This document shows positions 2,282 through 41,966 of a DNA stretch of 55,713 bases, piece after piece. The position numbers and the translations under genes are program-made. The notes beneath the pieces were generated by a model, which had not been told where the DNA came from, searched no databases, and saw nothing but the letters and a program-made list of their open reading frames with translations. Position 1 is the first letter of the stretch, and every line of letters starts with the position of its first letter. This DNA comes from Candidatus Shapirobacteria bacterium CG_4_10_14_0_8_um_filter_39_15 (lineage in GTDB: Bacteria; Patescibacteriota; Microgenomatia; UM-FILTER-39-15): contig PFLE01000011.1 of assembly GCA_002784465.1 (NCBI GenBank), forward strand, positions 69,966 through 125,678, read 5' to 3'.

Positions 2282-3362
2282 TTAGGTTATTAACTAAAAT
2301 TTCGGCCGCATTCAATTTAATTAGCTTCTTGGCTTGACTGCCGTTTTGATGATATTGATCAATCTTTTCCATCATTTTGTTAATTTTTTCCAGCAAAGTT
2401 GATGAGGTTAAATCTTTTTGATAAAGAATCTCGGCAATTCCGATTTTTTTTAGCATCAAGGCGTTTTTTGTCTGTTCGTCCTGATAAGTCCAAGGGATTG
2501 GAATAAAAAGTGTCGGTTTACCCAAGGCTGCCACTTCGCAAACCGTATTAGCCCCAGCCCTGGAAACAATTAGATTCGCGTGATTCATTACCCAACCGAT
2601 TTGTTGTGAATTAATATAAGGAAATAATAAATAATTGGGTCCAAAATCTTTATTGAGTTTTTCGTAATCCAGCTCTCCGCACTGGTGAATAACGGCGTAC
2701 TTCTTTAGTAACTCAGGCAAACAACCAAGTACTGCATTATTAATCAGTCTTGATCCCTGATTTCCTCCCGTGATATAAATTATTGGCAATTTCGAATTTC
2801 GGATTTCGTTTACCCTGTAAGGGAATTTCGAATTTCGAATAAATATCTCCTGACGGATTGGATTACCAGTTAACACTACCTTATCTGCGGGGAAATGTTT
2901 CACTGAATCCGAAAATGAAACGGCTATTTTATTAACAAACAGGGAATTAATTTTTGACGATAAGCCAAAAGTGATCGTTTGTTCGTGAGTTAAAATCGGG
3001 ATGCGCAGAATCCAAGCAGAAAAAACGACTGGCACTGAAACGTATCCGCCAAAAGAACAAACAACATTTGGTTTGATTTTCCAAAGCCAGTAAAATGATT
3101 GAATCAGCCCCAAGGGAATCCGCAGCAAAGAAGGGATGGTGTAGCGGCTGAATTGTCTTTGCAACCGGCCAGTGGTTATGGAAATAAATGTCGCACCAAG
3201 TTCAGGAATCACTTTCGATTCAACCGAAGCGGTTTTATCACCTTCTAGGCTGTGTTTCCTACCAAAATAATAAATCTCCCAACCGCCCCCTTTTTTTAAC
3301 TCGGAAATAACCGCTTGAGCGGGTGTTAAATGTCCGCCGGTAATCACGATTTTTTTCATCAT
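2262..3362 (-). CDS. murG: MurG, undecaprenyl-PP-MurNAc-pentapeptide GlcNAc transferase (start may be second ATG at 3359)
   Basis: TGGH, GGYVS, HEQ, TGNPIR, GGNQG, SRAGANT and QTKNA motifs. Confidence 0.96.
   Translation of the reverse strand: MMKKIVITGGHLTPAQAVISELKKGGGWEIYYFGRKHSLEGDKTASVESKVIPELGATFISITTGRLQRQFSRYTIPSLLRIPLGLIQSFYWLWKIKPNVVCSFGGYVSVPVVFSAWILRIPILTHEQTITFGLSSKINSLFVNKIAVSFSDSVKHFPADKVVLTGNPIRQEIFIRNSKFPYRVNEIRNSKLPIIYITGGNQGSRLINNAVLGCLPELLKKYAVIHQCGELDYEKLNKDFGPNYLLFPYINSQQIGWVMNHANLIVSRAGANTVCEVAALGKPTLFIPIPWTYQDEQTKNALMLKKIGIAEILYQKDLTSSTLLEKINKMMEKIDQYHQNGSQAKKLIKLNAAEILVNNLNEIAKK
2788..2840. repeat. In-frame heptamer array (AATTTCG) with a nested truncated family-A REP in the MurG interdomain linker
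   Basis: AATTTCG AATTTCG GATTTCG [TTTACCCTGTAAGGG] AATTTCG AATTTCG AAT. Encodes IRNSKFPYRVNEIRNSK. Confidence 0.8.
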
Positions 3363-3372
3363 CTAAATTATA

Positions 3373-4461
3373 TCATTTAACAACTCTTTGCCGGGAAATA
3401 TTAAGAAGAATACCAATCCCCGCTAAATTAATCACCAGAGATGATCCGCCGTAAGAGACGAATGGCAGAGGAACACCGGTTAAAGGAATTAAGGAAACCA
3501 TGGCAGCTAAATTCACGACCATTTGAATTCCGATCCACGAAGTAATGCCAACCGCCAGCAGCTGGCCAAATCGGTCGGGTGTTTCCACGGCAATTTTAAA
3601 CCCTCGCCAGATAATAATCAAAAACAAACCAATTAAAACAAGCGCCCCGATAAAACCAAGCTCTTCCGCAATGACCGCAAAAATCGAGTCGGTGGTTGCT
3701 TCCGGCAGATATGCGTATTTTTGCCGGGAGGCACCGATTCCCACTCCGAATAATCCACCCGAACCTAAAGCCAATAAAATCTGGTGAAGGTGATAGGATG
3801 ATCCAAGAGGATCGCGATTCGGATCAAAAAAAGTCAATAATCTCGCCCGCCGATAAGAAGAACTGATAATCAAAATAATTCCTCCGATTAAACTGCTGGT
3901 AATAAAACCGATTAACGACAAAAGCGGGGCGCCGGAAACAAAATAAAGAATAAAACCGGTAATTGAAATAATTACGGCTGTTCCCAAGTCCGGCTCTAAG
4001 AGAATTAATAAATTAAGAAGGCCTAAAACAAATATTAACGGCAGGAATCTTGACTTGGAAGTAAAGACAGAGGACAAATATATTACCAAAGAAAGTTTTA
4101 CCAACTCGGCCGGTTGAAACCCGAAAAAGCCCAAATTAATCCACCGTCTGGCACCTAATAATTTTATCCCGATTCCCGGAACTAAAACTAAAATTAGAAA
4201 CCCAATGGTTGCTAAAATCAGGATCGGGGAAATTTTTCTCAAAACCTGATAATTGATTTTTGAAAAAATCGCTAGAGAAATAAAACCTATAATAATCCAA
4301 ATAATCTGCTGGCGAATATAATAATACTTATCACCAAAGTCCTGAAAAGCCGTTACCGAAGAAGCTTCGAAAATCATTAAGACCCCAAAAATTGACAAGG
4401 CAACGGTTAAATAAAAAAGGAGAATATCAATTCGTCTGATCTGGGGTTTGAGTTGAGCCAT
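3373..4461 (-). CDS. ftsW: FtsW, SEDS-family peptidoglycan polymerase (likely start 4461)
   Basis: GARRWI, FQPAELVK, EPDLGT, TDSIFAVIAEELG and LPFVSYGGSS motifs. The ATG overlaps the mraY stop (TAATG). Confidence 0.95.
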   Translation of the reverse strand: MAQLKPQIRRIDILLFYLTVALSIFGVLMIFEASSVTAFQDFGDKYYYIRQQIIWIIIGFISLAIFSKINYQVLRKISPILILATIGFLILVLVPGIGIKLLGARRWINLGFFGFQPAELVKLSLVIYLSSVFTSKSRFLPLIFVLGLLNLLILLEPDLGTAVIISITGFILYFVSGAPLLSLIGFITSSLIGGIILIISSSYRRARLLTFFDPNRDPLGSSYHLHQILLALGSGGLFGVGIGASRQKYAYLPEATTDSIFAVIAEELGFIGALVLIGLFLIIIWRGFKIAVETPDRFGQLLAVGITSWIGIQMVVNLAAMVSLIPLTGVPLPFVSYGGSSLVINLAGIGILLNISRQRVVK

Positions 4462-5495
4462 TAGATCACGGCTAACCATAGACCGAAAACGGCCAAGATT
4501 ATACCGACAAGCCAAGCACGCATAACGATTTTTGGTTCTTCCCAACCAATCGCTTGAAATAACAAATGAAGGGGCGCGATTCGAAAGATCCTTCGATGAA
4601 AAATCCGAATGGCAATTATTTGTCCAAAACTGGAAGCAACCTCAACAATAAACAAGCCGCCGATTACGACAACCGCCATAATTTTTCCAATCAGCAAACC
4701 AACCACGGCTAAAGTCGCGCCAAAAGATAGCGCCCCAACATCTCCCAGCCAAATTCTGGCCGGATAAACATTAAAATACAAAAAGGCCATTAACGCACCG
4801 ATCCAAAGGGGTAAAAAGATTGACAACACGGTATCAAGAACTGTTTTTGACAAAATCCAAAAAGCAAAAAGATAAATCAACAGCAAACCGCACGATAGTC
4901 CATCCAAACCATCGGTAATATTAAAGGCATTGGCAAAGGCAACAATTACGAAAGCGGCAAAAGGAATATAAACAATACCCAGAGGAATAACATTAAAAAG
5001 GGGAATGTGAACAAAATCAATTTTAAGATTGTTATACAAAAGAACAGCAATAATTACCCCCAACGTGCATTGAATTAGAAATTTGTGACGGGTTTTAAGA
5101 CCAAAAATACCCTGTCGTGCCAACCCGAAAGACTTCATTAAATCGTCATACAAACCCAATAAACCGAAGGAAATAAAAGTGAAAAAGATAATATTGATTT
5201 CTTCTTTAATCGGATAGGAAGAAGAAATATAAATCCCTAAATAGGAAATTAAAGGGAATAAAATCGCGAAAAGCAGGCAAACCACCGCAATAATTAAAAA
5301 ACCGCCGCCAACCGGAGTGCCGATTTTTCCGGCATGAAGTTTGTAAAAAAGCTTCTCACCGACTTTAAGTTTTTCCGCTGATTTAGTTTGGTCTAAACGC
5401 TGAAATTTGAGTTTGTATAAAAAGTTAATAAACGGAACAACTAACAGGCTAGTCAAAAGGAAGGAAAACATTAATAGTCCTAACGATAATGCCAT
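4461..5495 (-). CDS. mraY: Phospho-N-acetylmuramoyl-pentapeptide transferase MraY
   Basis: KIGTPVGGG, GLYDD, NAFNITDGLDGL, FNVYPARIWLGDVGA and APLH motifs. Confidence 0.95.
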   Translation of the reverse strand: MALSLGLLMFSFLLTSLLVVPFINFLYKLKFQRLDQTKSAEKLKVGEKLFYKLHAGKIGTPVGGGFLIIAVVCLLFAILFPLISYLGIYISSSYPIKEEINIIFFTFISFGLLGLYDDLMKSFGLARQGIFGLKTRHKFLIQCTLGVIIAVLLYNNLKIDFVHIPLFNVIPLGIVYIPFAAFVIVAFANAFNITDGLDGLSCGLLLIYLFAFWILSKTVLDTVLSIFLPLWIGALMAFLYFNVYPARIWLGDVGALSFGATLAVVGLLIGKIMAVVVIGGLFIVEVASSFGQIIAIRIFHRRIFRIAPLHLLFQAIGWEEPKIVMRAWLVGIILAVFGLWLAVI

Positions 5496-5516
5496 ATTGT
5501 AATTATATTTTACTCT

Positions 5517-7220: not shown

Positions 7221-7229
7221 TTGACTTTT

Positions 7230-7511: not shown

Positions 7512-7518
7512 TTTGTTT

Positions 7519-7583
7519 GGGTATGGGCGGGTAATTTTTCTGGAGGGCAGGCAGATAACCAGAAATTTTCCCGCCCATAACCC
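7519..7583. repeat. Long imperfect hairpin between mraZ and ftsL
   Basis: TATGGGCGGG...TTTCTGG / CCAGAAA...CCCGCCCATA arms. Confidence 0.75.
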
Positions 7584-7984: not shown

Positions 7985-7988
7985 TTTT

Positions 7989-8013: not shown

Positions 8014-8051
8014 CTATAATACATATTGAGACAGTTTAATATATATGTCAA

Positions 8052-8179: not shown

Positions 8180-8180
8180 T

Positions 8181-8936: not shown

Positions 8937-8938
8937 TA

Positions 8939-15848: not shown

Positions 15849-16954
15849 TCTTCTTCGATTTTTTGCTTAAATTTCTTTTTAAATATTTCTTGGCTGAATT
15901 TTTCCGCTTGTTTCCGGCAATCTTCCGGTCTAAACCCCTTCTCCCCTTTATCCTGTAAGGACGTCTTTCCCATCTCCCCCAACGCTTCCAATAAGGACTC
16001 GGCCGTTTGTTCCTTAAAAAATATCCCTGTTTTCCCTTCAATAATCGTTTCTAAAGCGCCACCACCTCGATAAGCAATTACCGGTTTACCGCAAGCTTGC
16101 GCTTCAAGCGGAACCAGACCAAAATCTTCCTCTTGCGGAAAAATAACCGCCTGGCATTTTTTATAGTAACCTAAAAGTTCCTTGTCTGTCAATTGTCCTA
16201 AAAACTCAATATTCGGTTTTGCCATTGCTCTTAATTTATTCATTTCCCTCCCTACTCCCACTATTTTTAAAGGCCAATCCAATTTATTAAACGCTTCAAT
16301 GGCAAGATCTATTTGTTTGTATGAAACAAGTCTGGATACCACCAAATAGAAGTTGGAAGTTGGACGTGAGAAGCTAGAGTATCTTTCGGATTTCGGATTT
16401 CGAATTACGAATTTCGTAGTGTCAACAGGAGGAAATATGACTTCAGACTTCCTTCGATAGTATTTCCATATCCTTTGTTTTACTGTCTCAGAGATAGCAA
16501 AGTAATAATCCGGTCTTTGAGATGCGATCTGGTCCCAAATACGCAATTTGGTCATCATGGATCGGACAATCATTGGCACATGATAATCTTGGTAACCGTT
16601 CCAAAGATATCTTGTTGGCGTCAGGCAATAACAAATATGTAAAGTCCCAGGCTTGGTGATTATTCCTTTTGCTTCGGCGCTGGTAATAGAAATCACGATA
16701 TCAAAGCCTGTGAAATCAAAGGTTTCAAAAGCTAGTGGAGTTAGCCAGGGATATAATTCATGGTGAGTTTTGGCAAAGGGAAATTTCTGCAGAAAGGAAG
16801 GAATGATTTTAAAATCTTTTGCCCAAAGTGCGGTTTCGGGATTGTATACTGCAGTATACAAAGGCGCATCCGGCCAGATTTCGTGAAGAGCCACCAAAAC
16901 TCTCTCCGCCCCGCCAATCTTATTTACGCGATCATATACAAAGGCTATTTTCAT
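15812..16954 (-). CDS. GT4 glycosyltransferase (likely start MKIAFVYD at 16954)
   Basis: GGAERVL and EEDFGLVPLEAQACGKPVI. The upstream extension in the ORF track is a translated REP. Confidence 0.93.
   Translation of the reverse strand: MKIAFVYDRVNKIGGAERVLVALHEIWPDAPLYTAVYNPETALWAKDFKIIPSFLQKFPFAKTHHELYPWLTPLAFETFDFTGFDIVISITSAEAKGIITKPGTLHICYCLTPTRYLWNGYQDYHVPMIVRSMMTKLRIWDQIASQRPDYYFAISETVKQRIWKYYRRKSEVIFPPVDTTKFVIRNPKSERYSSFSRPTSNFYLVVSRLVSYKQIDLAIEAFNKLDWPLKIVGVGREMNKLRAMAKPNIEFLGQLTDKELLGYYKKCQAVIFPQEEDFGLVPLEAQACGKPVIAYRGGGALETIIEGKTGIFFKEQTAESLLEALGEMGKTSLQDKGEKGFRPEDCRKQAEKFSQEIFKKKFKQKIEEEWKKYKTNISTS
16349..16418. repeat. Two adjacent in-frame heptamer arrays in the GT4 linker
   Basis: GAAGTTG GAAGTTG GACGTGA GAAGCTA (16349-16376) and TTTCGGA TTTCGGA TTTCGAA TTACGAA TTTCGTA (16384-16418). 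Confidence 0.75.
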
Positions 16955-27616: not shown

Positions 27617-29151
27617 CTTGTCATTTTATAGATTTTCTGGCCGGACTCTGCTTGCCAGATTTTTTGAATTGTTTTCGGAGCAAAAGATTCCATTTCCATT
27701 CCTCCCAATTTCAAAGGTTCTTTTATATCCCCTTCATCAATTAAATATAATGTTTTAGCCTGTTGATAATCATTAATATCCCAATTGCTGATTGGCAACC
27801 TGTAATAAGCCTCCAAAAAATAACGGTATTCCAAACCATTATGATCCCAACGTTGAGGATCATTATTGTTCGCCGCGATGACATAACTGCCAGGCTTACT
27901 GTTAAAAAAATCATCGGCGATAATTTTTGCCGCCGAGAGAAAAAAGGCATCACTTCTTAAGCTATTAGGCATTTTAAAGAAATTAAGAATGCTGAAAACA
28001 AACATTGGAAAAAATAATAAAAGAGACAAAAATAAACCCCAATTCTTTTTCCTTAAAAGGTAAAATAGATTAACCAAAAGAAGAAAAACCGCCGGGAACA
28101 AAAAATTATATTGATAAAAATAAAATGTTTTTGACGGCAACAGGAACCTCAAACCAATGCCGAAAAGAAACCAGAATAAAATCAAAAAGAAACCTTTCTT
28201 TTCCGTATTGTCTTTTATCCTGATGATCAAACCTATAAATATGAACAAAATAAGCAAAAAACTCCAGCTTTGATAAAAGATGGGTATTTTGTCCATAAGA
28301 ATAATTGAAGAAGGATTAATTGATTCCACTCCCTTAATTAGATGACCATTAAAAAGTAACCATGGAAGCTTGAAAAGATCTTTCATAAAAATTTCCAGAC
28401 GAAAAAAAATAGAGTCTGAGCCGTTCCCGTTCCCGATTACAAAGTTGACAATATTTGAGGTTATCGAAAAATGATGACGAACCTCAAAAAATAATAGAGG
28501 TGAAACGAAAATCAAAAAGGAGAAAAAACCAATGATTACGTTTTTCAACGAAGCTTTGTTCTTTCTCCGACCAAAAAGAAAAACAAAAAAAATCACTGGC
28601 GCCATCACTAAAAGACTGAAATGAAAGCTTAAACTTAAACCAAAAAAAGTGCAGGCAATATAAAACCAGAGCCATTTTTCTTTGATCAAAAATCGGTAAA
28701 GACAAAAAATTATCGCCAGAGAAAAAAAATCGCTGGTATTAGGATTCCAGGCATGCCGGGAAAAGGAAATTACAACCGGGCAAACAGCAAAAAGTAAGGA
28801 TCCCAAAGCCGCCGGTAATTTACCAAAAATCTCCCGGGCGAATAGATAAAAAAGGAAAACAGCACTTATCCCTAAAATTGCCGTAAAAAAATCCGCTCCC
28901 TGCGGCTGAAAGCGAAAAATCATCAAAAAAGGAGCCAGGAGGTAATAATAAAAAGGCGGCAAAAAAACACCGGGAATAAGAACAGTGGGCCCAAGTAAAG
29001 TTAACTTATGATCAAGCAGCATTCTTTTAATTATTAAAAAATCTCTGGCCTGATCATAAGTGATAAACTGGGTGATTTCTAAATGCCAAAAACGGAAAAA
29101 GGCCGCTATGAGCAAAATTAATAAAAGAACCAGAATTTCATTTCTTTTCAT
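27613..29151 (-). CDS. GT-C membrane glycosyltransferase (PMT/ArnT-like)
   Basis: ITYDQARD, PPFYYY and AWNPN motifs. Polytopic. Confidence 0.82.
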   Translation of the reverse strand: MKRNEILVLLLILLIAAFFRFWHLEITQFITYDQARDFLIIKRMLLDHKLTLLGPTVLIPGVFLPPFYYYLLAPFLMIFRFQPQGADFFTAILGISAVFLFYLFAREIFGKLPAALGSLLFAVCPVVISFSRHAWNPNTSDFFSLAIIFCLYRFLIKEKWLWFYIACTFFGLSLSFHFSLLVMAPVIFFVFLFGRRKNKASLKNVIIGFFSFLIFVSPLLFFEVRHHFSITSNIVNFVIGNGNGSDSIFFRLEIFMKDLFKLPWLLFNGHLIKGVESINPSSIILMDKIPIFYQSWSFLLILFIFIGLIIRIKDNTEKKGFFLILFWFLFGIGLRFLLPSKTFYFYQYNFLFPAVFLLLVNLFYLLRKKNWGLFLSLLLFFPMFVFSILNFFKMPNSLRSDAFFLSAAKIIADDFFNSKPGSYVIAANNNDPQRWDHNGLEYRYFLEAYYRLPISNWDINDYQQAKTLYLIDEGDIKEPLKLGGMEMESFAPKTIQKIWQAESGQKIYKMTR

Positions 29152-30260
29152 TTCCTGAAAACCTCGTCATAAATCTTTAGTGTTTCCCGTGCAGTTTTTT
29201 CCCAGGAAAATTCCTTAGCTCTTATTAAACCTTTTTTTGTCATTTCTTCTTTATTTTTTATGGCTTTCTCAATTCCCTGTACAATCTCTTCAACGTTCTC
29301 TGGATTAACCAGTATCGCTGCCTTTCCGGCAATTTCTGCCAAACTGGAAACATTGGAGGTTACCACGGGACAACCACTGGCCATCGCTTCAAGAACCGGT
29401 AGACCAAATCCTTCATACAAAGGTGGATAAACAAAACATTCCGCTCCGGAGTATAACAACGCTAAATCTTCCTTTAGCACGAAACCGAGAATTTTTAATT
29501 TTTTATCTTTAATATTTGATTTTTCACTACCCCATCCATATTTCCCTGCTATCACTAAAGTGACAAGGTTAGACCTTGTCAATCGAGAATGAGCCTCGAT
29601 TACCCTAGCAAGATTCTTTCTCGGTTCTCTTGTTCCTACTGCCAATATATATTTTCCCTCAATTCCATACTTCTTCTTTATTTTGTTTACCTTGAGCGGA
29701 GTCGAAGGGTTGTAAATCTCATCCGCCGCTTCATATATGACTTTAATTCTACTTTCAGGAATCCCTAGTAATTCGACAATATCTTTTTTAGTGTTTTCCG
29801 AAACCGCAATAATTATTTTTGATTCTTTTTTAACTAAATCCAGTTTTCTTTTTTGATTGGCAACAATATCGTGACCTCCTCGAGGAACAAAGGTCTCCGG
29901 ATATTTTAAAACCGTTAAATCGTGAATTGTTGTCACTTTGGGACATTTTGCCGGCGGCTCCAGCCAATCGGAAGTGTGAAATAGATCTAACTTTCCAGTA
30001 AAAGTTTCTATAGGTAAAATATGGAATTTATTCCATATCAATTCCAAAAATATTGGCGGGAATCGGAAATTTTTGATATTTGATCTGTGTTTTATATTTT
30101 CTATCTTTAATCTTTTATTTTCTATTCTTAGCGATGAATAAAATAAAACATATTCATTTTCCTTGTCAATGTTTAGCAGGTTATTAACCAGGTTTTCCGT
30201 ATATGTGGCTACCCCGGTTCCAGGGTATGCCAATTGCGAGATGTCAATTCCAATCTTCAT
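29148..30260 (-). CDS. GT4 glycosyltransferase carrying four in-frame repeat insertions
   Basis: TIHDL, EPRKN and YEGFGLPVLEAMASGCPVV motifs. Confidence 0.93.
   Translation of the reverse strand: MKIGIDISQLAYPGTGVATYTENLVNNLLNIDKENEYVLFYSSLRIENKRLKIENIKHRSNIKNFRFPPIFLELIWNKFHILPIETFTGKLDLFHTSDWLEPPAKCPKVTTIHDLTVLKYPETFVPRGGHDIVANQKRKLDLVKKESKIIIAVSENTKKDIVELLGIPESRIKVIYEAADEIYNPSTPLKVNKIKKKYGIEGKYILAVGTREPRKNLARVIEAHSRLTRSNLVTLVIAGKYGWGSEKSNIKDKKLKILGFVLKEDLALLYSGAECFVYPPLYEGFGLPVLEAMASGCPVVTSNVSSLAEIAGKAAILVNPENVEEIVQGIEKAIKNKEEMTKKGLIRAKEFSWEKTARETLKIYDEVFRK
29561..29581. repeat. Perfect 9-bp hairpin (AAGGTTAGACCTT type) inside the GT4 gene
   Basis: TGACAAGGT-TAG-ACCTTGTCA. Encodes LTRSNLVT. 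Confidence 0.65.
29686..29709 (-). repeat. Family A REP-like element, in-frame in the GT4 linker
   Basis: CCCTTCGACTCCGCTCAAGGTAAA. Encodes PSTPLKVN. Confidence 0.78.
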
Positions 30261-30266
30261 AATAAT

Positions 30267-30306
30267 ATTAACGGATTAACGGATTAAAAAATTAACGGAT
30301 TAACAC
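30267..30306 (+). repeat. Octamer array (ATTAACGG x5), left arm of four-helix-bundle cassette 1
   Basis: ATTAACGG ATTAACGG ATTAAAAA ATTAACGG ATTAACAC. Confidence 0.92.
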
Positions 30307-30712: not shown

Positions 30713-30770
30713 AATTTCGTAAATTCGTAATCCGTTAATATTTTAATTCTTTAATCCGCAATCCGTTAAT
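30713..30770 (-). repeat. Octamer array, right (inverted) arm of cassette 1
   Basis: Minus strand reads ATTAACGG ATTGCGG ATTAAAGA ATTAAAAT ATTAACGG ATTACGA ATTTACGA. Confidence 0.9.
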
Positions 30771-32160
30771 TTTTCCTATATTCCCAAACAGGTATTTGAT
30801 TAAAACTTATTTCTTTGGTTTTATTATAACCATTTTTAGTTAGCCAGAATATAATCTTTTCTTCAGGGTCAAACAAGGGTTGTAAATATCGAATATAATA
30901 TATTGTTAAATTGATAAATTGCTTGCCCTGCGCTTGTCGAAGGGTTAGGTTATCAAAATCTTTGGAATCAACCATCCTGGCCCCCGGAGAAATTCCAATC
31001 AGCCTAACCTTGCCTGACGAATAATATTGCCAGGGCCAATTCGACGTCGATGATGGCAAAACTGCCACCGCATTTTTTTGTTGTTCAATAAAATATATTG
31101 TTCCCCGCCAGTCTTCCCGCCAGAAATAGGGATTGGAATAATACTGGTATAAAGAAAATACAGAAACCAGAATAATAAAACCAGCAAACATTTTAACGAT
31201 TCTATCACTTTTAATTGACATTAAACCCAAAACCAATAATAAATAAAAGGCCGGCAAGACAAAAAGTAGACGGAAGGGCTGAAAGTTGGGAAGACCAACT
31301 GACAACAGCAACGCAAGTGCAGTTGGGACGATTAACCATAAATTGATTAACAGGTCTTTTCTGAAAAGCCCTTTTAACAAAAGAAATCCGTAAACTAGAA
31401 ACAAGCATATTGCCGATAATTCATAAAGCGTTTTATCAAAGATCGTGATTCTCCCAATTATGAATTTTATAAATGTTAATGGCAAGGCCTTGATAAAGGA
31501 AGCGTTTACCAATATCCCCCATTGCGGCAGAATTGATACTGCTTCTTTACCAAAGGATATTTGTTTTATGAACATCGGCAACCAAGGAATAAACATTAAA
31601 AGGGAAACTGCCTGATATCTCAAGACATGATTATTTCTGTTCCGCCAAGAAATGATGCCTTGAACCAATAAAATAAAAATAGCAAAGTAGCTGGAGTAAA
31701 GAGCTAAAACAGTGGCAACTACGTAAAAAGTCCACTTCTTTTTTAGAAAAAAATACATTGACAAAGAAACCAACAAAGTAACCAAAGCATAAGGTCTAGC
31801 CTCTTGGGAATAATAAATATGAAACGGCGCTGTCGCCATCAACAACGCTACTATCTGTGCAATCCGCAATCCGTTAATCCGTAATCCGTAATCCGCAATT
31901 TTATAAACAACATAAATTGTGGCGGTTCCAAAGATAACTGATGGCAGGCGTAATATTATTTCGCTTGATCCAAGAAGGTGAACCCAACGCCACATAAATA
32001 TATGATATAAAGGAGGGTGAAAATCGCCTAACAGTTCGGAAAAAATATTAAAGAAACTACCTTGTGACGTTATCGCCTGAACTGCCTCATCAAGCCAAAG
32101 ACTTTGATTAAGATTTATCAATCTCAAGACTAATCCCAGTAACAATATTAAGATAATCAT
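30766..32160 (-). CDS. GT-C membrane glycosyltransferase (PMT-like)
   Basis: SLWLDEA, DFHPPLY, YYSQEARPY and REDWR motifs. Confidence 0.85.
   Translation of the reverse strand: MIILILLLGLVLRLINLNQSLWLDEAVQAITSQGSFFNIFSELLGDFHPPLYHIFMWRWVHLLGSSEIILRLPSVIFGTATIYVVYKIADYGLRINGLRIAQIVALLMATAPFHIYYSQEARPYALVTLLVSLSMYFFLKKKWTFYVVATVLALYSSYFAIFILLVQGIISWRNRNNHVLRYQAVSLLMFIPWLPMFIKQISFGKEAVSILPQWGILVNASFIKALPLTFIKFIIGRITIFDKTLYELSAICLFLVYGFLLLKGLFRKDLLINLWLIVPTALALLLSVGLPNFQPFRLLFVLPAFYLLLVLGLMSIKSDRIVKMFAGFIILVSVFSLYQYYSNPYFWREDWRGTIYFIEQQKNAVAVLPSSTSNWPWQYYSSGKVRLIGISPGARMVDSKDFDNLTLRQAQGKQFINLTIYYIRYLQPLFDPEEKIIFWLTKNGYNKTKEISFNQIPVWEYRKN
30922..30944 (-). repeat. Family A REP-like element, in-frame and nested in a degenerate octamer run
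   Basis: CCCTTCGACAAGCGCAGGGCAAG encodes LRQAQGK. Followed by TTATCAAT TTAACAAT. Confidence 0.75.
31861..31899 (-). repeat. In-frame 7/8-mer array related to the cassette 1 unit
   Basis: Plus strand AATCCGC AATCCGTT AATCCGT AATCCGT AATCCGC AAT. Encodes IADYGLRINGLRI. Confidence 0.88.
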
Positions 32161-33050
32161 TGATTAATAAGCTGTTTTAACAATCCGAGTTTTAATCCTA
32201 GTAGTAAATTAAAAAATATCGCCCATTTAATTAATTGAGCTTTGGTTTTTGAATAATTCTTCTCGCAAAATAAAAATAACGAATTAAAATTAAGAAACAA
32301 AAATTTATCAAGACCTTCTTTTTTTATTACCGGCTCAATGCTTTTTCGACCAAGATGAATAATTCTGGCGTCTGGAACAACAAACAATTTATAACCGGCT
32401 TTGTTTATTTGAAAACTCAAATCAACATCTTCGAAATAGATAGGAAATTTTTCGTCAAATCCGTCGATTTGTTTAAAGAGATTTTTTCTTATCATTAACG
32501 CTGCGCCAGGTATTTGCTCAACTTGTGAAACATTTGTATAGTCACTGACTGAAAATAAATAATTCGGAAATATTTTAGTAAATAATGTTCTTAAATATTT
32601 ATTATAATAAACCAACGCTCTTAGAGGGCTTGGAAATCTTAAAAAACACGGATCGATTTGATAAGAACCGTCTTCGTTCAAAAGCAATGGTGAAACAGCT
32701 CCCACCTCTTGATTGTGATCAAGAAAATCTATAAGTTTTTCCAAAGCCGATTCTTTAACAATCGTATCCGAGTTTAGAAAAAATAAATATTCTCCTTTTG
32801 CTATTTTAGCAGCCTGATTATTAGCTTTACTAAATCCCAGATTATTTTTATTAATAATCAGGTTAACGGCAGGAAATTCCTTCTTCACCATTTCCGCTGA
32901 TTTGTCTTGCGATCCATTATCCACCACAATTATTTCAAATTTTAAATTAAAAATTTCAAATTCCAAACTTTTAAGACAGTCCCTCAAAAGTTTGGCTGTG
33001 TTCCAGGAAAGAATAATAATCGAAACTCTTATTTTTTGAGTATTTTCCAT
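32157..33050 (-). CDS. GT2 glycosyltransferase
   Basis: VVDNGSQD, NLGFSKANN, FLNSDT and YFEDVDL motifs. Contains a TTTCAAA-type array at 32933-32967. Confidence 0.92.
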   Translation of the reverse strand: MENTQKIRVSIIILSWNTAKLLRDCLKSLEFEIFNLKFEIIVVDNGSQDKSAEMVKKEFPAVNLIINKNNLGFSKANNQAAKIAKGEYLFFLNSDTIVKESALEKLIDFLDHNQEVGAVSPLLLNEDGSYQIDPCFLRFPSPLRALVYYNKYLRTLFTKIFPNYLFSVSDYTNVSQVEQIPGAALMIRKNLFKQIDGFDEKFPIYFEDVDLSFQINKAGYKLFVVPDARIIHLGRKSIEPVIKKEGLDKFLFLNFNSLFLFCEKNYSKTKAQLIKWAIFFNLLLGLKLGLLKQLINQ

Positions 33051-34255
33051 ACGAAAAGATTATTAATTATTAATCCGGCAAATTCGCCCCCCACAACGGC
33101 CCAAGCTGCACCAATAATTGAAAACCGGGGGATTAAAAATAAACATAAAATTAGCGTAATCAAAAAATTAACCAAAGCCCAAGGTAAAAATCTCTTAAAT
33201 TGAGGTGAATTTTGAATAATGTTACCGGGCAAAACATTAACAAAAAAGAGAATTAAGGAGACACTTAAAATAGCTAAAACCGGTGCAGCCGCCATATAAC
33301 TTTGGCCATAAGTCAAACCGATAATCAGCTTTGAACCAATGATCAAAAACAAAGCAAACGGTAAAGAAAAAAGCAGTAAAATTCCCAGACCCTTTCGGTA
33401 GACCCTCTTTAATTTTTCTTTATCTTCTAAAAATAAACGAGCAGATAAAGGGAACAACGCCAAAGCTAAAGATTGAGGAACTAGAATAATTGCTTCAATA
33501 AACTTAAAAGCGCTCCCATAAAGTCCGGTATAATAATCCCCTTTTAATAAACCAACCAAAATTAGGGAAATCCGTAGATAAATTACAGCCAAAATCAGTA
33601 AAAAGGCAAAAGCCCAGGATTGGGAAAGGGATTTGCTAATAAACTTTTTGTCAATAATCCAACCCAATGGCAACCCCCAAGAACCGGCCTTAAAAAGAAA
33701 AACCAAGGTGACCACCGATTGTCCCAAAAAGCCGGTAAGAAAAATCACCGAAAGCGGCAACTTAAGTAAAACAAAAATTACGCCGAGAATAAAAATTAAT
33801 AACTGACCAGCGATAACAGCAAAAGACATATATTCCATCTTTTCCCGAGCGTTTAAAAAACTGCTTAATAGATAGGTAAAACTGTAAGGAAAAATAAAAA
33901 GTCCGAAGATACCCAAATAAAAGATTTGCTGGAGCGACTGTCCAAGAAAGATACCCAACAACAAAGCCCCAAAATAAGCGATCAGGGATAACAAAAATCT
34001 TAATGGTAGTAAACGAGCTAGATAAAAGGAAATTTTTTCCGGTTCCCGAGAGATGTCGCGTAAAACCAATCTTTCCAAACCAAAATCCGCAACCGGAATA
34101 AAATTATAAATAAAAGCGAGGGTAAAATTATAAATACCAAAAGTCGCTACTCCAAGATACCGGGCTAAAAAGATAAAATAGATAAACCCCAGAAGGCGGG
34201 CGCTGATTTGAGAAAAAGAAAGAAACAAGGTGTTGGCGGCAATTTTAGCAATCAT
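33029..34255 (-). CDS. Wzx-type flippase (MOP superfamily)
   Basis: KIAANT, ARYLG...FGIY, DFGL, GLYGSA and IPRFSIIGAAWA motifs. About 12 TM helices. Confidence 0.9.
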   Translation of the reverse strand: MIAKIAANTLFLSFSQISARLLGFIYFIFLARYLGVATFGIYNFTLAFIYNFIPVADFGLERLVLRDISREPEKISFYLARLLPLRFLLSLIAYFGALLLGIFLGQSLQQIFYLGIFGLFIFPYSFTYLLSSFLNAREKMEYMSFAVIAGQLLIFILGVIFVLLKLPLSVIFLTGFLGQSVVTLVFLFKAGSWGLPLGWIIDKKFISKSLSQSWAFAFLLILAVIYLRISLILVGLLKGDYYTGLYGSAFKFIEAIILVPQSLALALFPLSARLFLEDKEKLKRVYRKGLGILLLFSLPFALFLIIGSKLIIGLTYGQSYMAAAPVLAILSVSLILFFVNVLPGNIIQNSPQFKRFLPWALVNFLITLILCLFLIPRFSIIGAAWAVVGGEFAGLIINNLFVWKILKK

Positions 34256-37294: not shown

Positions 37295-37301
37295 TATTAA
37301 A

Positions 37302-38828
37302 TTATAATATACCCCACGAATAAACACTAACCGGCCAATAACGGGGTTGCACTGAATATAATCTATCTACTTCCAGTTCCTTTTTTAAATTTTTATGGCT
37401 AAATTCCCTTATATCTTCCGGCACCTGATCATCCCAACTATCCAAAACTAATATACCCTTGGGATATCGTTTAATTATCCCATTAAGGCTCTCGAGATTA
37501 TTAACTATTTTAGCTCCCGAAAAAGTTTCGATTGTTTCGATATCAACTTTTCTTAAAATATAATCTAATTTCCCTTCTCCCAAATACCAAACAGGTAAAT
37601 CACTCCAGTTTGTAATCAGTACTGCTTTGGGGTTATCTTTCATTGTGTTTTCAACAAATCCATAAACCTTTTTCCAATCGACCTCCGGGATTTCCTGCAT
37701 ATCCGCGTTAAGCGAATATTCTTTTTGTGGCGAAAAAGAAATCTTATTAGACTTCCATAATGAAAAAACGACGACAAAAATCAGGATACCAGATACCAGA
37801 TACTGGATATTAGATGCTGGCCCCTGAACCCTTTTCCTAATATCAAATATCAAATATCCAATATCCATCATTCCATAGCTTGCCAACAAAATAATAAAAC
37901 CAAAAATAGGATAGAGATAGCGGGTGAACGGTTGAAAAAGAAAATAAGAAACAATCGGTGCTTGAATTAAGAAAATAAGCAAAAACATAGTAAGTTTTTG
38001 ATATTCTTTTTGCCAAAATAGGAATAATCCGCCAACAAAAGACAAAAAACAAAATGGTAAATAATTATGGGTCATAAAAACACGATAATAAAACAAATTA
38101 TTGGTTCTCCCGATTGAAGACAATATAGAAAAAATTTGAACTTTAAAAATTAAACCAAATAATACTAACAAAAATATCCCTAAAAACATCCATTTTTTTC
38201 CAAACCATGAAGCTTTAAAGATTAATAGATAGATAAAACCGGAGAAAAAAATGGTAAGACCTAAACCATGCATCAACGATGCGAAAACACTACACCCTAA
38301 AAAACCCAAAAAATAACGCCAATTGAATATTTTTTCTTTAGTCAACCTATAAATAAAATAAAACCCTAAAAGATAAAAAAATTGTAAAGCCTGATAGGGT
38401 CTTGCCTGACGGGAAAAGAGAATTTCGATATTCATAAAGGTTATAAAAAAGGTACTTAATAATCCCACCCTCCGGTTAAAAATTTCCTTTCCCAATAAAT
38501 AAATGACTAAAATCGTCAAAACACCAAAAAATACCGAAGGCAAGCGAATAGCAAATTCGTTTAAACCAAAAATACAAGCGGAGAGAGCACTTATCCAATA
38601 TTGCAACCATTGATAAACTCCGGTTGAATAACCATTGGTCAAAGCCGGTTGGCCTCTTTCTAAAATCGCTCGAACAAAAATAGCCACATGATTTTCATCG
38701 GTCCAGAATGAATAATTATTATCCAGTCCATAAATTCGATAATAGAAACCGAGAATTAAAAGAAAAAACAAAATGATATTGGATACTAGATATTTGATAT
38801 TGGATATTGAATCATGAATATTAGTCAT
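37302..38828 (-). CDS. GT-C membrane glycosyltransferase (PMT/AglB-like); N-terminus encoded by a repeat array
   Basis: SFWTDE, EFAIRLPSV and FSRQARPY motifs. Confidence 0.82.
   Translation of the reverse strand: MTNIHDSISNIKYLVSNIILFFLLILGFYYRIYGLDNNYSFWTDENHVAIFVRAILERGQPALTNGYSTGVYQWLQYWISALSACIFGLNEFAIRLPSVFFGVLTILVIYLLGKEIFNRRVGLLSTFFITFMNIEILFSRQARPYQALQFFYLLGFYFIYRLTKEKIFNWRYFLGFLGCSVFASLMHGLGLTIFFSGFIYLLIFKASWFGKKWMFLGIFLLVLFGLIFKVQIFSILSSIGRTNNLFYYRVFMTHNYLPFCFLSFVGGLFLFWQKEYQKLTMFLLIFLIQAPIVSYFLFQPFTRYLYPIFGFIILLASYGMMDIGYLIFDIRKRVQGPASNIQYLVSGILIFVVVFSLWKSNKISFSPQKEYSLNADMQEIPEVDWKKVYGFVENTMKDNPKAVLITNWSDLPVWYLGEGKLDYILRKVDIETIETFSGAKIVNNLESLNGIIKRYPKGILVLDSWDDQVPEDIREFSHKNLKKELEVDRLYSVQPRYWPVSVYSWGIL
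37785..37865. repeat. Cargo-less inverted heptamer arrays, in-frame inside the GT-C gene
   Basis: GATACCA GATACCA GATACTG GATATTA GATGCTG, 18-nt spacer, then TAATATC AAATATC AAATATC CAATATC. Confidence 0.88.
38775..38823 (+). repeat. Heptamer array (GATAYTR), left arm of four-helix-bundle cassette 2
   Basis: GATATTG GATACTA GATATTT GATATTG GATATTG plus two degenerate units. Confidence 0.92.
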
Positions 38829-39205
38829 TTAGATTCGAAACCCTTGGTTTGATAATTGGATTTAATAAAAGCATTCAGGGAGAAATTTAAATCTTCCAAA
38901 AGATTAGATATGGAACTATAATCTTTTTCCGTAATTAAATCGCGATTTTTAAGTAGTTCCAGCCAGTGCAGAGATTCCAAAAGAGAACCTCTGGCATTAT
39001 AGTAGAATTTAATGCGGTCAAGATAGTGAAATCTTCCATACCCTTCGGCAATGTTCGCCCCGATCGAATCAATCGCCCTTATAAATTGATCACCAATTGT
39101 TTTTTTAACCTGCCAAGTGAAATTTTTATATATCTCCCAAGATTTATTACTTATAATCAATGCTTTTTGATAAATTTTTAAATCTTTTAATAAAATATGA
39201 TCCAT
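38825..39205 (-). CDS. Four helix bundle protein (23S rRNA IVP / Avd-like family); likely start MDHILL at 39205
   Basis: DLKIYQKA and DQFIRAIDSIGANIAEGYGRFHY..IKFYYNARGSLLE motifs. Confidence 0.93.
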   Translation of the reverse strand: MDHILLKDLKIYQKALIISNKSWEIYKNFTWQVKKTIGDQFIRAIDSIGANIAEGYGRFHYLDRIKFYYNARGSLLESLHWLELLKNRDLITEKDYSSISNLLEDLNFSLNAFIKSNYQTKGFESK

Positions 39206-39208
39206 CTT

Positions 39209-39243
39209 TAATATCAAATATCTAGTATCTAGTATCTAATATC
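39209..39243 (-). repeat. Heptamer array, right (inverted) arm of cassette 2
   Basis: Minus strand reads GATATTA GATACTA GATACTA GATATTT GATATTA. 39210-39229 is a perfect 20-bp inverted repeat of 38782-38801. Confidence 0.92.
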
Positions 39244-39550
39244 TGTTTTCTTTTACATATTCAATAATCATTTGTATCACTCCAACTACCAAAAACATAT
39301 AGGCCCAGATAGCCGATTTTTCAGCGACCAAATCCTTTTTGAAAATCAGCAAAAAGGGGCACATCGTCAAAAATATTAATGCCCCAGCAATGGAAACTCT
39401 CCCTTTAAATTTGTAACGATAAGCCAATATAGTCCATAAACCAATAAGAAATAAAATCAGTAAATCGGAAGTAAATCTAAAAACAAAAATATCAAAAAAA
39501 ATACCAATTCCGGCGATAATTAATATCAAAAAATTTTTAATGTTTTCCAT
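39236..39550 (-). CDS. Small hypothetical membrane protein (about 4 TM)
   Basis: 104-aa hydrophobic ORF in operon orientation. Confidence 0.75.
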   Translation of the reverse strand: MENIKNFLILIIAGIGIFFDIFVFRFTSDLLILFLIGLWTILAYRYKFKGRVSIAGALIFLTMCPFLLIFKKDLVAEKSAIWAYMFLVVGVIQMIIEYVKENRY

Positions 39551-39659
39551 TTTTGATTACTATCTTTCTCTTTATAAAACTATATTCTAAATATCCCAAA
39601 CATCCTAAAAAGGTAAACAAGGTAATTCCTAAACCAAGATAAAACAACCGCTGGGGCCA
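39537..39659 (-). pseudogene. Orphan duplicate 3' end of the 39975-41966 gene
   Basis: Translates WPQRLFYLGLGITLFTFLGCLGYLEYSFIKRKIVIKNGKH*, versus WPQRLFYLGLFISGLTLFSCLGYLGYDYIKRRKVARNS* in the intact gene. No in-frame start. Confidence 0.85.
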
Positions 39660-39700
39660 TCCCAAGAATTTTTTTCAAAAATTCAGGGATGAATAGCCCC
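39653..39700. repeat. Hairpin immediately downstream of the GIY-YIG gene
   Basis: Minus strand GGGGC-TATT-CATCCC-TGAATTTTT-GAA-AAAAATTC-TT-GGGATG-GCCCC. Confidence 0.8.
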
Positions 39701-39705
39701 CAAAT

Positions 39706-39966
39706 TCATAAATTTTGGTAAAAATTTTCCAATCTTTTGTTAATAAATTTGTATCCCCATTGTCCCTTAAGATACTTCTCACGTCTTTTAGCGTCTTTCT
39801 TATCCAAACAAGCTTCGTAGTAAATCAACTTCAAGGGTATTCTGTGCCTTGTGGAAACGACTAATTTTCCACTATGCTCTTCTATCCTTCTCCTTAAATT
39901 ATCTGTATAGCCGATATATCTTTTGTTATCTTTCTCGCTCAATAAAATATAAACGTAATAAAACAT
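39706..39966 (-). CDS. Small stand-alone GIY-YIG nuclease
   Basis: YYVYIL..DNKRYIGYT.NLRRRIEEH and LIYYEA...A.RREKYLK motifs. Confidence 0.93.
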   Translation of the reverse strand: MFYYVYILLSEKDNKRYIGYTDNLRRRIEEHSGKLVVSTRHRIPLKLIYYEACLDKKDAKRREKYLKGQWGYKFINKRLENFYQNL

Positions 39967-39974
39967 CTTAAAAT

Positions 39975-41966
39975 TTATGAATTTCTTGCGACTTTTCTTC
40001 TCTTAATGTAATCATAACCTAAATACCCTAAACAGGAAAATAACGTCAAGCCACTAATAAATAAACCTAAATAGAAAAGTCGCTGGGGCCAAAATTCAAT
40101 GATAATCTCGTAATCTCTCTTACCACCAGCATCTTCGGGAGTAATATACCAAGAATTCGCGTATCCATTAACCAATAGGTGTCGATCTTCGGAAATTGCC
40201 TTCTTTCCCCAAGTTTCAAAGGTTGCTTTTTCTATAAATATATTTCGGTGAGTCCCTTCTTTAACTTCTCCATCAAAATAGCTCGCCACCGTCTCTCCAT
40301 AATTCTTTAATTCGTCATTTTTTAATCCGTTAATTTCGGAATCTGTTAATCCGTTAATATACAACTTCCATCCTTGATGAAAACTTTCGGAAAATACTAA
40401 GGTATAAGGGTCAACTGCACCCTCTATCTTAACCCGATATTTCGTCGGATTAATTCTAACAAATGTAATTTTTGGTACTACCTTGTCATAATTCGTTAAT
40501 CCGTTAATCTCTTTAATTTCTTTAATAGATTTGAGTATAATCTCCAGTTGATAAATTCTTTCAATCTTTAAGTTTTTAAATTCTACCTTACCGGAATTAT
40601 TGGAATTGGCAGGGGTATAAAAATAAATTTCTGCACCTAAAGTATTTTTGTCGGCTCTTAATATAACGTTAAACGTTTGCCATTCATCGTTTTTACCGTT
40701 TATCAATATTCTACTCAACACTTTCTCTTTTTTGATTACATCGTTTTCTTCTTTACGTTCGATCTTACTCTCCATGATTCCCACGCCTAAATGACTCTCT
40801 TTTACGGTATAGTCAAAACTCAAAGAATAAAGATTATTTGATTGCCAATTATTTATTTCTTGAAAAACAAGATTTTTGACATCTGGGAAAGGGTTCTGGG
40901 TAAATTCCACTCCTCCTTCTTTAACTTTTGTTTCCTCAAATTTCCGCCAATTTGTACCCACCAAATTATCCGATTCCGGCAAATTCAAAACTAATTGATC
41001 ATTACCTTCTTTAAATTCCCTTTCTCCCAGCTTTATCCAACCCCCATTTGTTTCAATTTTATCTCTGTTAATTTCTAGAGTATTTCCATTCATTCCTAAA
41101 TTCATTAACCCATCAATATTGCCAATAAACATTGAATAAGTCCCTTTCTTTGGTATTTTAAAACTATACTCTAAATTCCTTAAATCAAACGGTTCCAGTG
41201 CCTTGATTTCCCCATCCAATACCTCAAAAACTCTTTCCCAATCATTCTCGCTGGGTACGCCTTCAAATTTATCTTGATATATCTCTTCAATTTTTTCTTT
41301 ATGCCTCTCCCAATAAGCTCTTAATTTTATGGTCGACAAATCTCTCAACGCTTTAACCTTTGGCTTATCCAAATCCGTTAATTTCTCAATTTCTTTTACT
41401 GTTTCTTCCATCTTCTTTTGATAAATATCCAATATCCAATATTTAATATCTTTTTCTTTTCCCCATTTTTCGTATTCCGTTATTCTTTTTGAAGCAAAGT
41501 AAAGTTTTTTATCAATCAATTTTCCCGGATCTTTTCTTACCTTCCATTCCTCATATTTCTCTTTCAATCCCGCTAGTTTCCACCAAAAACTTCCCTGACT
41601 ATGCTTAACGTAAGGAAAAAACACGCTGTTTTTTAAGCTTTCCCTTTTCTCAATATCCAATATCAAATATCCAATATCCTTTTTTTCTCCTTTAATAAAA
41701 AATTCATCCGCCCTGTCTTTTAATCCATTAATTCTTGAATCTGTTAATCCGTTAATCGTGTCTAAATATATCCCCGATCTAATTTTGTAATCTTCAAACC
41801 CCAAAATATCAAGCAAATTTTTAGTATCTAAATTTGTATTAATTATGTTTTGAGGAATATAAAATAGAGGCAAGAAATAATCAGTAATCGCCTGCGCTCG
41901 TGAGTTAAAGAAAAAAAATGTAAAGAAAAAGAAGAAGATTATTGCAATTCTAAATATATTTCTCAT
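39975..41966 (-). CDS. Large secreted/membrane-anchored hypothetical protein (YfhO-like C-terminal region), rich in repeat insertions
   Basis: Signal-like N-terminus, INPTKYRV..LVFSESFH.GW, VNGYANSW and a C-terminal TM helix. Confidence 0.75.
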   Translation of the reverse strand: MRNIFRIAIIFFFFFTFFFFNSRAQAITDYFLPLFYIPQNIINTNLDTKNLLDILGFEDYKIRSGIYLDTINGLTDSRINGLKDRADEFFIKGEKKDIGYLILDIEKRESLKNSVFFPYVKHSQGSFWWKLAGLKEKYEEWKVRKDPGKLIDKKLYFASKRITEYEKWGKEKDIKYWILDIYQKKMEETVKEIEKLTDLDKPKVKALRDLSTIKLRAYWERHKEKIEEIYQDKFEGVPSENDWERVFEVLDGEIKALEPFDLRNLEYSFKIPKKGTYSMFIGNIDGLMNLGMNGNTLEINRDKIETNGGWIKLGEREFKEGNDQLVLNLPESDNLVGTNWRKFEETKVKEGGVEFTQNPFPDVKNLVFQEINNWQSNNLYSLSFDYTVKESHLGVGIMESKIERKEENDVIKKEKVLSRILINGKNDEWQTFNVILRADKNTLGAEIYFYTPANSNNSGKVEFKNLKIERIYQLEIILKSIKEIKEINGLTNYDKVVPKITFVRINPTKYRVKIEGAVDPYTLVFSESFHQGWKLYINGLTDSEINGLKNDELKNYGETVASYFDGEVKEGTHRNIFIEKATFETWGKKAISEDRHLLVNGYANSWYITPEDAGGKRDYEIIIEFWPQRLFYLGLFISGLTLFSCLGYLGYDYIKRRKVARNS

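Follow-up and report, generated by a model that had tools for sequence, protein, structure and literature searches.

We analysed a 55,713-nt stretch of the genome of Candidatus Shapirobacteria bacterium CG_4_10_14_0_8_um_filter_39_15 (the window, C7:69966-125678), in which short tandem arrays of 7- or 8-nt units occur within and between genes and in which two genes of family PF05635 (23S_rRNA_IVP, hereafter IVP) each lie between a pair of inverted arrays. The best explanation we have, to which we give an even chance, is that the arrays are the arms of a mobile IVP cassette resembling the intervening sequences (IVSs) of 23S rRNA, together with solo derivatives of these arms and derivatives without an open reading frame (ORF), and that they are probably binding sites of the cassette's own pentamer. 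IVP genes and arrays are joined physically, as arms around a gene; statistically, as array density against IVP gene number; and numerically, as five units against five protein chains.

IVP genes between inverted arms of tandem units

The genome (815,648 bp in 21 contigs, 97% complete) contains 14 matches to PF05635, 13 of which exceed the gathering cut-off of 33.8 bits. Most of the 14 are flanked by inverted arrays whose unit differs from cassette to cassette, the arm pairs being ATTAACGG/TAATCCGT, GATATTG/TAATATC, TTCAAAA/TTTTGAA, TTCATTGC/CAATGAAA, GTAAAACA/TACTGTTT and others. For the two cassettes of the window, the inverted partner score of the arms was 47 (cassette 1) and 48 (cassette 2), against a control maximum of 25 in either case. 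The start and stop codons of the IVP genes are carried by the arms. IVP genes in other families of the class have the same layout, with 29 arm pairs among 63 cassettes scoring above the 99th percentile of mismatched flanks. The original prediction tied the arrays to genes for four-helix-bundle proteins, and this tie holds in the present genome and in distant relatives. It had also expected units lacking a partner in the window to flank further paralogs. TTTCAAA-type arrays do flank an IVP gene at C20:48022, and GAAGTTG/TTTCTAG-type arms flank another at C5:20848, but GAAGTTG itself was no orphan: GAAGTTG and TTTCGGA/TTTCGAA are partners, because they pair via G.U as the arms of one hairpin. 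Arms of the TCAAAAG/TTTTGAA unit, 49-53 nt long and composed of two phase-shifted sub-arrays, form intergenic hairpins at C12:16691-16795, C18:6299-6421, C15:25660-25743, C19:43765-43817 and C20:48336-48386, and the IVP gene that this arm type flanks at C20:48022 is broken by one internal TAA.

A scan with a four-sequence IVP alignment as query gave 80 loci (L175-L254) of a single IVP subfamily, 76 of which were analysed. The proteins are 58-74% identical and come from many lineages of Patescibacteria (Levy-, Gottesman-, Moran-, Saccharibacteria and others); relatives of the window IVP proteins are likewise mostly from Patescibacteria assemblies. Since MurG proteins within one class are 34-66% identical to that of the window, the higher identity of IVP proteins across lineages suggests that the cassette has spread horizontally. 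Arms of period 7 abut the ORF in 53 of the 76 cassettes. Their unit has a core, a G (0.91) and an A (0.86) at fixed positions two apart, with the other positions free, and beyond this core the arms of one cassette are more alike (0.66) than those of different cassettes (0.49). Core runs at 7-nt spacing in the 5' arm comprised five units in 30 of the 76 cassettes, four in 16, six in 3 and eight or more in 3, and in the 3' arm four and five were equally frequent (21 each), with six in 4; the run on the opposite strand was one in 120 of 152 arms. In 56 mixed cassettes, none of the 112 arms reached six cores. The closest solved IVP structures, 2GSC and 2RLD, are PDB entries with five chains of one sequence each. 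Of 72 subfamily cassettes, 63 have a same-strand ORF that ends at the 5' arm. Stops in every frame were modestly enriched in the arms (22/53 vs 25% in shuffles, and 16/53 vs 8%), and with so modest an enrichment the idea that arms serve as universal all-frame stop signals was rejected.

Both window cassettes are absent from L170, a metagenome contig syntenic with 29-43 kb of the window, whose proteins are 75% (DegT), 67% (PMT_2), 65% (Wzx), 63% (GT4) and 59% (GT-C) identical to their window counterparts. At the site of cassette 1, L170 has no IVP gene, arms or arrays, and its GT-C and GT4 genes share an ATGA overlap. At the site of cassette 2, it again has no IVP gene and no arms, and a homolog of the 104-aa ORF shares about 20 nt with the PMT_2 gene. 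The window PMT_2 protein diverges from its ortholog exactly where an arm of cassette 2 encodes its first 18 residues, in place of a different N-terminus in L170; the array listed in the original prediction as N-terminal in this gene is therefore a cassette arm. Sharply bordered sites that are filled in one genome and empty in another are expected of an insertable element and are found here with one relative, at 59-75% protein identity, although the absence of the cassettes from L170 may reflect loss there. These sites and the PMT_2 arm agree in part with the alternative offered in the original prediction, that the arrays are debris of a spreading element. The GT-C/GT4 junction, the site of cassette 1 in the window, is filled in a third relative, L172 (4950-5408), by a 152-aa ORF that lacks both a Pfam match and arrays; the junction seems to receive different inserts. 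In contigs of runs X4 and X12, 37268 is linked to 39524 through 20 other letters, and this variant lacks the 104-aa ORF, IVP gene 2 and the PMT_2 gene.

We counted IVP matches in 30 relatives of the same class, which had between 0 (9 genomes) and 17, and sampled array density in 29-100 kb from each of 20 relatives, for 21 genomes including the present one. Array density rises with IVP gene number (Spearman 0.83, n=21). The 12 genomes with IVP genes had a median of 16.3 arrays per 100 kb (range 3-37.8) and the 9 without had a median of 3.0 (range 0-11), near the shuffled background of 0.3-3.3.

Array load and unit number

Compared with 10 Markov-4 shuffles of the whole genome, arrays of at least 3 copies were some 20-35-fold more frequent than expected by chance: 100 against 2.8 for period 7 (shuffle maximum 6), 52 against 2.7 for period 8 and 26 against 1.3 for period 9. 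Arrays with a period of 7-9 and 2.8 or more copies number 206. Of these, 117 are within crude ORFs and 27 are at the edges of ORFs, and 62 are intergenic although intergenic sequence makes up only about 9% of the genome. Array-bearing crude ORFs number 93 and lie on most contigs; they are not one gene family, and the idea of a single paralogous family was rejected. Unit families were obtained by clustering the 206 arrays on 7-mers, as single linkage on 6-mers chained 178 of them into one group. They recur at many loci and across genomes, and arrays of the same family are clustered within 1 kb (36 vs 18 expected), not within 12 kb (71 vs 73). The commonest family, ATTGYTAN, has 26 arrays, mostly intergenic and 0-25 nt upstream of start codons. 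They are often followed by tCTGCGG (e.g. C12:13950-13981, C18:12832-12868, C19:14170-14248 and C19:39993-40078), resemble TTGCTA...TATAAT at promoter spacing and recall the TAACTGA repeats of Beggiatoaceae. In four groundwater runs, contigs end at arrays and depth there is up to 15-fold higher; summed contig depth was 157 at 41376-41692, 44 at 39157-39473, 38 at 40108-40424 and 44 at 32817-33133, and about 10-14 elsewhere in the window. This rise implies that the same arrays are present at many places or in other organisms of the community.

Unit number was counted as exact 3-mer cores at period spacing. Two, three, four and five cores were found in 24, 43, 54 and 27 of 148 period-7 arrays of the genome, in 7, 41, 27 and 10 of 85 period-8 arrays and in 9, 41, 16 and 4 of 70 period-9 arrays, so that the mode is four for heptamers and three for 8- and 9-mers. 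None of these 303 arrays had six or more cores. The corresponding counts in the relatives were 14, 45, 52 and 24 of 138 (period 7, with 3 at six or more), 6, 34, 22 and 5 of 68 (period 8, with 1) and 10, 56, 14 and 0 of 80 (period 9, with none), that is, 4 of 286 at six or more. Because core counts stop at five, the distribution is truncated rather than geometric, in line with the original prediction, and the 5' arms of the subfamily cassettes peak at that number. The modal size of 4-5 units given there was upheld for the arrays of the window and for cassette arms, among them the four in Table 1, but not for dispersed arrays as a whole, whose mode is 3-4. The ceiling is one of five units or of about 35-40 nt, the two limits fitting equally well. 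A reading by which all three periods share a constant length of about 29 nt, and not a unit number, was rejected: it rested on copy numbers and medians from Tandem Repeats Finder (TRF) that are shaped by its detection threshold, and core counts gave the ceiling at five.

Arrays inside genes and alternative explanations

The window genes lie nearly all on the minus strand, and Pfam confirms their names (FtsA, MurG, FtsW, MraY-type, PBP, many GT4, GT2 and PMT_2, a GT-C). TRF, which returned 71 rows for the window, places an array at every site at which the original prediction had seen 7/8-mers in frame, each within a long open frame (Table 1). That such arrays sit in tolerant places was borne out for those of murG and of the GT4 gene at 16349-16416, which lie between two Pfam domains, and for those of the PMT_2, GT-C and 663-aa ORFs, in stretches that vary between orthologs, but not for the arrays at 29490, 30090 and 32932, which are inside Pfam domain spans.

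Table 1. Arrays, hairpins and IVP cassettes of the window (positions counted from its first nucleotide)
Feature	Position	Strand	Context and remarks
AATTTCG array, 3.0 + 2.6 copies, 14-nt split	2788-2808 + 2823-2840	.	murG interdomain linker (TRF, Pfam)
G.U hairpin, GAAGTTG arm + TTTCGGA/TTTCGAA arm	16349..16416	+	GT4 interdomain linker (TRF, Pfam); TRF: GAAGTTG 16349-16364, 2.3 copies; TTTCGAA 16384-16416, 4.7 copies
AATTTTT-type heptamer array, 5.0 copies	29490..29524	.	in GT4 29148-30260, inside Pfam domain span
Degenerate heptamer array, 5.3 copies	30090..30126	.	GT4 29148-30260, inside Pfam domain span; weak (68% matches, TRF score 30)
Cassette 1 arm 3' of IVP gene, ATTAACGG x4.8	30267..30304	-	7 nt upstream of GT4 start
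IVP gene 1, 129 aa	30316..30705	-	PF05635, 120.7 bits
Cassette 1 arm 5' of IVP gene, TAATCCGT x5.5	30728..30770	-	overlaps GT-C gene stop
ATTACGG/ATTGCGG-type heptamer array, 5.7 copies	31859..31899	.	loop of GT-C gene
ATTTCAA heptamer array, 5.1 copies	32932..32967	.	near GT2 gene 5' end, inside Pfam domain span
ORF-less hairpin, two inverted heptamer arrays	37785..37865	-	inside PMT_2 gene 37302-38828; TRF: 37785-37815, 4.4 copies; 37839-37865, 3.9 copies
Cassette 2 arm 3' of IVP gene, GATATTG x5.0	38775..38809	-	encodes PMT_2 residues 7-18, approximately
IVP gene 2, 130 aa	38825..39217	-	PF05635, 91.2 bits
Cassette 2 arm 5' of IVP gene, TAATATC x5.1	39209..39244	-	overlaps 104-aa ORF stop
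TTAATCCG array, 4.6 copies	40322..40358	.	663-aa ORF, sense peptide INGLTDSEINGLKN
TTAATCCG/TTAATCTCT array	40489..40526	.	663-aa ORF; TRF row 40496-40526, 3.6 copies
AATATCC array, 3.9 copies	41424..41450	.	663-aa ORF, peptide DIKYWILDI
CAATATC array, 4.1 copies	41651..41679	.	663-aa ORF, peptide DIGYLILDI
TTAATCCG array, 4.8 copies	41720..41757	.	663-aa ORF, peptide INGLTDSRINGLKD

Between orthologs, in-gene arrays hold their position and change by whole units. The murG linker has a net gain of 3 aa over a 66%-identical ortholog, and in the closest ortholog, that of G018 (66% identity), this linker also carries a heptamer array, built of a different unit. The L170 GT4 ortholog carries a TGGAAAA x5.1 array about 45 nt, in gene coordinates, from the 29490 array. 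In the GT-C gene, L170 has the same type of unit at the same place in 10 copies, and L172 has no array and a shorter loop. The PMT_2 hairpin lies in a diverged stretch, a loop of the protein, with a net gain of 7 aa over L170. Among the arrays of the 663-aa ORF, that at 40322 is kept in L170 with a 3-aa indel and that at 41720 is kept with 8 more residues, equal to three 8-nt units; the 40489 array is in a stretch that varies, and those at 41424 and 41651 are not in L170. The predicted folds differ in strength between strands: -19.7 kcal/mol on the plus and -11.7 on the minus strand for the murG array, -22.8 on the plus and -7.4 on the minus strand for the GT4 hairpin (16340-16425, z -2.5), and -33.9 on the sense and -17.8 on the other strand for the PMT_2 hairpin (37780-37870, z -4.1).

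Directly after the 663-aa ORF lies an 86-aa GIY-YIG ORF (39706-39966, minus strand; PF01541, E 1.9e-15), and after it a 42-aa ORF (39537-39665, minus strand) that duplicates the C-terminal end of the 663-aa protein (WPQRLFYLGL...). The pair (39537-39966) looks like an inserted nuclease gene that brought a replacement gene end with it; L170 has two different ORFs at this site instead. The stretch is present in public groundwater and aquifer metagenomes, and among the public runs listed for it none is an RNA run.

The original prediction took the arrays to be sites by which the proteins mark or regulate host transcripts, those of envelope genes above all. IVP rings would then act in trans, binding dispersed arrays with one unit per subunit. 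We regard this as unlikely, even though it would suit the five-unit ceiling with its five-chain PDB entries, the way arrays track IVP number, the resemblance of dispersed unit families to cassette arms of this genome or its relatives, and the position and unit that in-gene arrays keep between orthologs. It would also suit the many intergenic arrays 0-25 nt upstream of start codons, a placement that part of a report on TAACTGA repeats describes as well (PMC4679880). In-gene arrays have no strand bias relative to transcription, with 9 sense and 7 antisense in the GAAGCGR family and 3/2 and 2/2 in two others, and this mixed orientation speaks against a role on host mRNA. Nor are the arrays specific to envelope genes, since the 93 crude ORFs that bear them, in either orientation, are of no one family and since the window, with 21 of the 206 arrays, has 3.8 per 10 kb against 2.5 genome-wide. 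Moreover, the two conserved TTAATCCG arrays of the 663-aa ORF show no excess synonymous conservation against L170, and most dispersed arrays have 3-4 units.

Similarly improbable is that the arrays are REP/REPIN-like repeats moved by Y1 (IS200/RAYT-like) transposases, with IVP genes as passengers in hairpin loops. There are 13 Y1_Tnp matches in this 816-kb genome (ORFs of 224-272 aa, e.g. C7:68580-69275, just upstream of the window) and about 25 hairpins built of inverted arrays, intergenic or in coding sequence, whose G.U/G.T asymmetry falls on one strand or the other irrespective of how the gene runs, which handling as single strands would lead one to expect. In REP/REPIN-RAYT systems, however, repeats flank the Y1 genes and their abundance is tied to Y1, and neither is the case here. 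Arrays lie within 400 nt of few of the 13 Y1 genes of the genome, array density has a partial correlation of 0.19 with Y1 number given IVP number (and of 0.76 with IVP number given Y1 number), and a relative with 18 Y1 matches and no IVP (G029) has only 4 arrays per 100 kb.

We see little likelihood in plain replication slippage of 7-9-nt units in unconstrained sequence, unrelated to IVP, with the arms sharing a mutational habit of the genome. Heptamers are over-represented in many bacteria, for which part of one report gives polymerase slippage as an idea (PMC4692102), and the arrays here do lie in variable loops and differ by whole units between orthologs. Slippage does not account for the truncated distribution, in which heptamers of the genome and its relatives together number 106 at four cores, 51 at five and 3 at six, nor for the recurrence of the same unit families at many loci and across genomes or for the near-background load of same-class genomes without IVP. 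The arrays are also imperfect (78-86% matches), unlike phase-variable contingency repeats, which are perfect, vary in unit number within populations and shift the frame, and contigs of the four groundwater runs held no unit-number variants, a weak test because contigs drop rare variants. An equally slim chance goes to operon punctuation, in which the arrays would be promoters, terminators or signals close to starts and stops and IVP would be incidental. The promoter-like ATTGYTAN arrays, the start and stop codons in the arms and the modest stop enrichment would agree with it, but it leaves the in-gene arrays, the IVP correlation and the five-unit ceiling unexplained.

Several observations weigh against the IVP cassette itself as the source of the arrays. 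G023 has no IVP match yet 11 arrays per 100 kb, and G015 has 6 IVP genes yet 3 arrays per 100 kb. All 21 genomes are related, with part of each sampled, and because of this kinship the p-values of the correlation between IVP number and density exaggerate its significance. A wobble-aware search found an inverted partner within 700 nt for about 47 of 206 arrays, so most in-gene arrays are solo; a strict Watson-Crick search found partners for 31 of 371, and the hairpin as the general form of the arrays was rejected, partnered arrays being a minority. In-gene arrays are mostly replacements with the small net gains given above, not clean insertions, and the two conserved TTAATCCG arrays, which are kept like ordinary coding sequence, could have given rise to an arm instead of descending from one. 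Some cassette arms carry 8-12 units, and the share of arrays reaching five cores falls with period (18%, 10% and 3% for 7, 8 and 9), which is what a length limit predicts. Sense and antisense wobble scores of the arms showed no clear difference (18 vs 12, p 0.06). A contig joint from 38718 to 39253, in two of four runs (X8 and X12), skips just cassette 2, with sides of 31-40 nt that are too weak to count.

As we picture the IVP cassette, it is an element of about 450-500 nt in which a pair of inverted arms closely encloses the IVP ORF, and each arm is made up of no more than about five 7- or 8-nt units that share a conserved core. The layout is that of an S23p-bearing 23S rRNA IVS, but the cassette sits where protein genes meet and usually runs the same way as the upstream gene. 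Solo arrays and hairpins without an ORF would be derivatives or relics of arms, of which stop-free versions alone would survive inside genes, in loops, linkers and N-termini, where they would be long-lived and change by whole units. Each arm, as single-stranded RNA or DNA, would bind the pentamer formed by the IVP of its own cassette, with every subunit taking one unit, and such binding is plausible. The 5' arm ends in the IVP start codon, so that binding could compete with formation of the stem and its cleavage by RNase III, for which the stem would be an IVS-like substrate; this competition could set IVP expression or maintenance of the cassette. Movement may occur by recombination between arms and look-alike hairpins, as one possibility.

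Relation to known elements and significance

The comparisons that follow draw on parts of the reports PMC4990558, PMC4692102, PMC4679880 and PMC10053308. The IVS of Coxiella, which RNase III cuts, is 428 nt long, with a 28-bp terminal stem and a loop that contains an S23p ORF (PMC4990558). Like the 23S rRNA IVSs of Coxiella and Leptospira, the cassettes are elements of about 430-500 nt with an IVP-family ORF in the loop, terminal inverted repeats able to form a stem of about 28 bp or more around it, a host genome that encodes RNase III and a sporadic, transfer-like distribution (PMC4990558). In contrast to IVSs, which occupy a helix of 23S rRNA (9, 25 or 45), both window cassettes lie between protein-coding genes, and ORF-less hairpins occur even inside genes; their arms are built of 7-8-nt units in tandem, with a ceiling of five; and there are many paralogous cassettes, with 14 matches in one small genome. 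IVS elements and heptamer arrays were each already known, and what is new here is an element of IVS type that lies outside rRNA and has arms of tandem units and putative in-frame derivatives.

STRR are heptamer repeats of heterocystous cyanobacteria. Other heptamer arrays described are GGGAATC in Xanthomonas and GGGGAYT in Nostoc (PMC4692102), and TAACTGA in Beggiatoaceae, Cyanobacteria and Bacteroidetes (PMC4679880). These are short tandem runs too, with 2-6 copies per set in Maribeggiatoa (BOGUAY) (PMC4679880) and with many convergent pairs in Xanthomonas (PMC4692102); many lie just upstream of start codons, and they keep their positions between relatives with whole-unit changes. The present arrays share with such simple sequence repeats their over-representation, partly convergent pairing and conservation in place, and differ from them in having many unit families of periods 7, 8 and 9, in lying within ORFs in over half of cases and in their explicit association with IVP. 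The parts of PMC4679880 drawn on contain 0 mentions of S23, four-helix or intervening sequence, and those of PMC4692102 0 mentions of S23, xcc0516 or four-helix. IVP genes have been described within cas operons (PMC3936711) and in rRNA insertions of bacteria of the candidate phyla radiation (bioRxiv 10.1101/2024.02.27.582315), with no repeats mentioned in either case. In the literature covered, supplements excluded, we found no published link between IVP and tandem heptamer arrays.

The trp RNA-binding attenuation protein (TRAP) forms a ring in which each subunit binds one short RNA repeat. Here too repeat number could match the subunit number of a putative reader, with variable spacers between cores: a ceiling of five and a subfamily arm mode of five stand beside five-chain PDB entries, the dispersed arrays have a mode of 3-4, and a length limit fits equally. 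The fold of TRAP is unrelated to that of IVP, and the arrays here lie on either strand relative to genes. Avd is a pentameric four-helix-bundle protein, of the same fold family as IVP and a ring-type oligomer that works with nucleic acid. Homology of the Avd of diversity-generating retroelements with PF05635 has been reported (PMC10053308). The 97%-complete genome has no match to reverse transcriptase (PF00078) and no template/variable repeat pair, and because no reverse transcriptase was found, the IVP genes here are not Avd genes of such retroelements. REP/REPIN elements are accompanied by RAYT transposases, and Rickettsia palindromic elements are inserted in frame in genes. Both are, like the present arrays, dispersed hairpin repeats in permissive places, some of them translated in frame. 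Compared with REP/REPIN, the copies here share only a unit motif and layout rather than a long conserved consensus, their abundance follows IVP and not Y1 number, and their net insertions in genes are small.

For the annotation of Patescibacteria, the cassette means that its arms give neighbouring genes new N-termini and stop codons, that arrays make lineage-specific loops in enzymes such as MurG and glycosyltransferases, and that assemblies break at arrays. A broader reading, possible but on the doubtful side in our judgement, is that IVP/S23p proteins are putative pentameric readers of five-unit arrays, with units specific to each subfamily and each cassette recognising its own arms, and that the heptamer arrays of cyanobacteria (STRR, TAACTGA), Xanthomonas (GGGAATC), Beggiatoaceae and Bacteroidetes would be footprints of the same system. 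Two loose ends, a protein family with structures and no function and an over-representation of heptamers in several phyla with no mechanism, may then be one and, if the broader reading is true, a widespread family that has been without a function since the 1990s would gain one.

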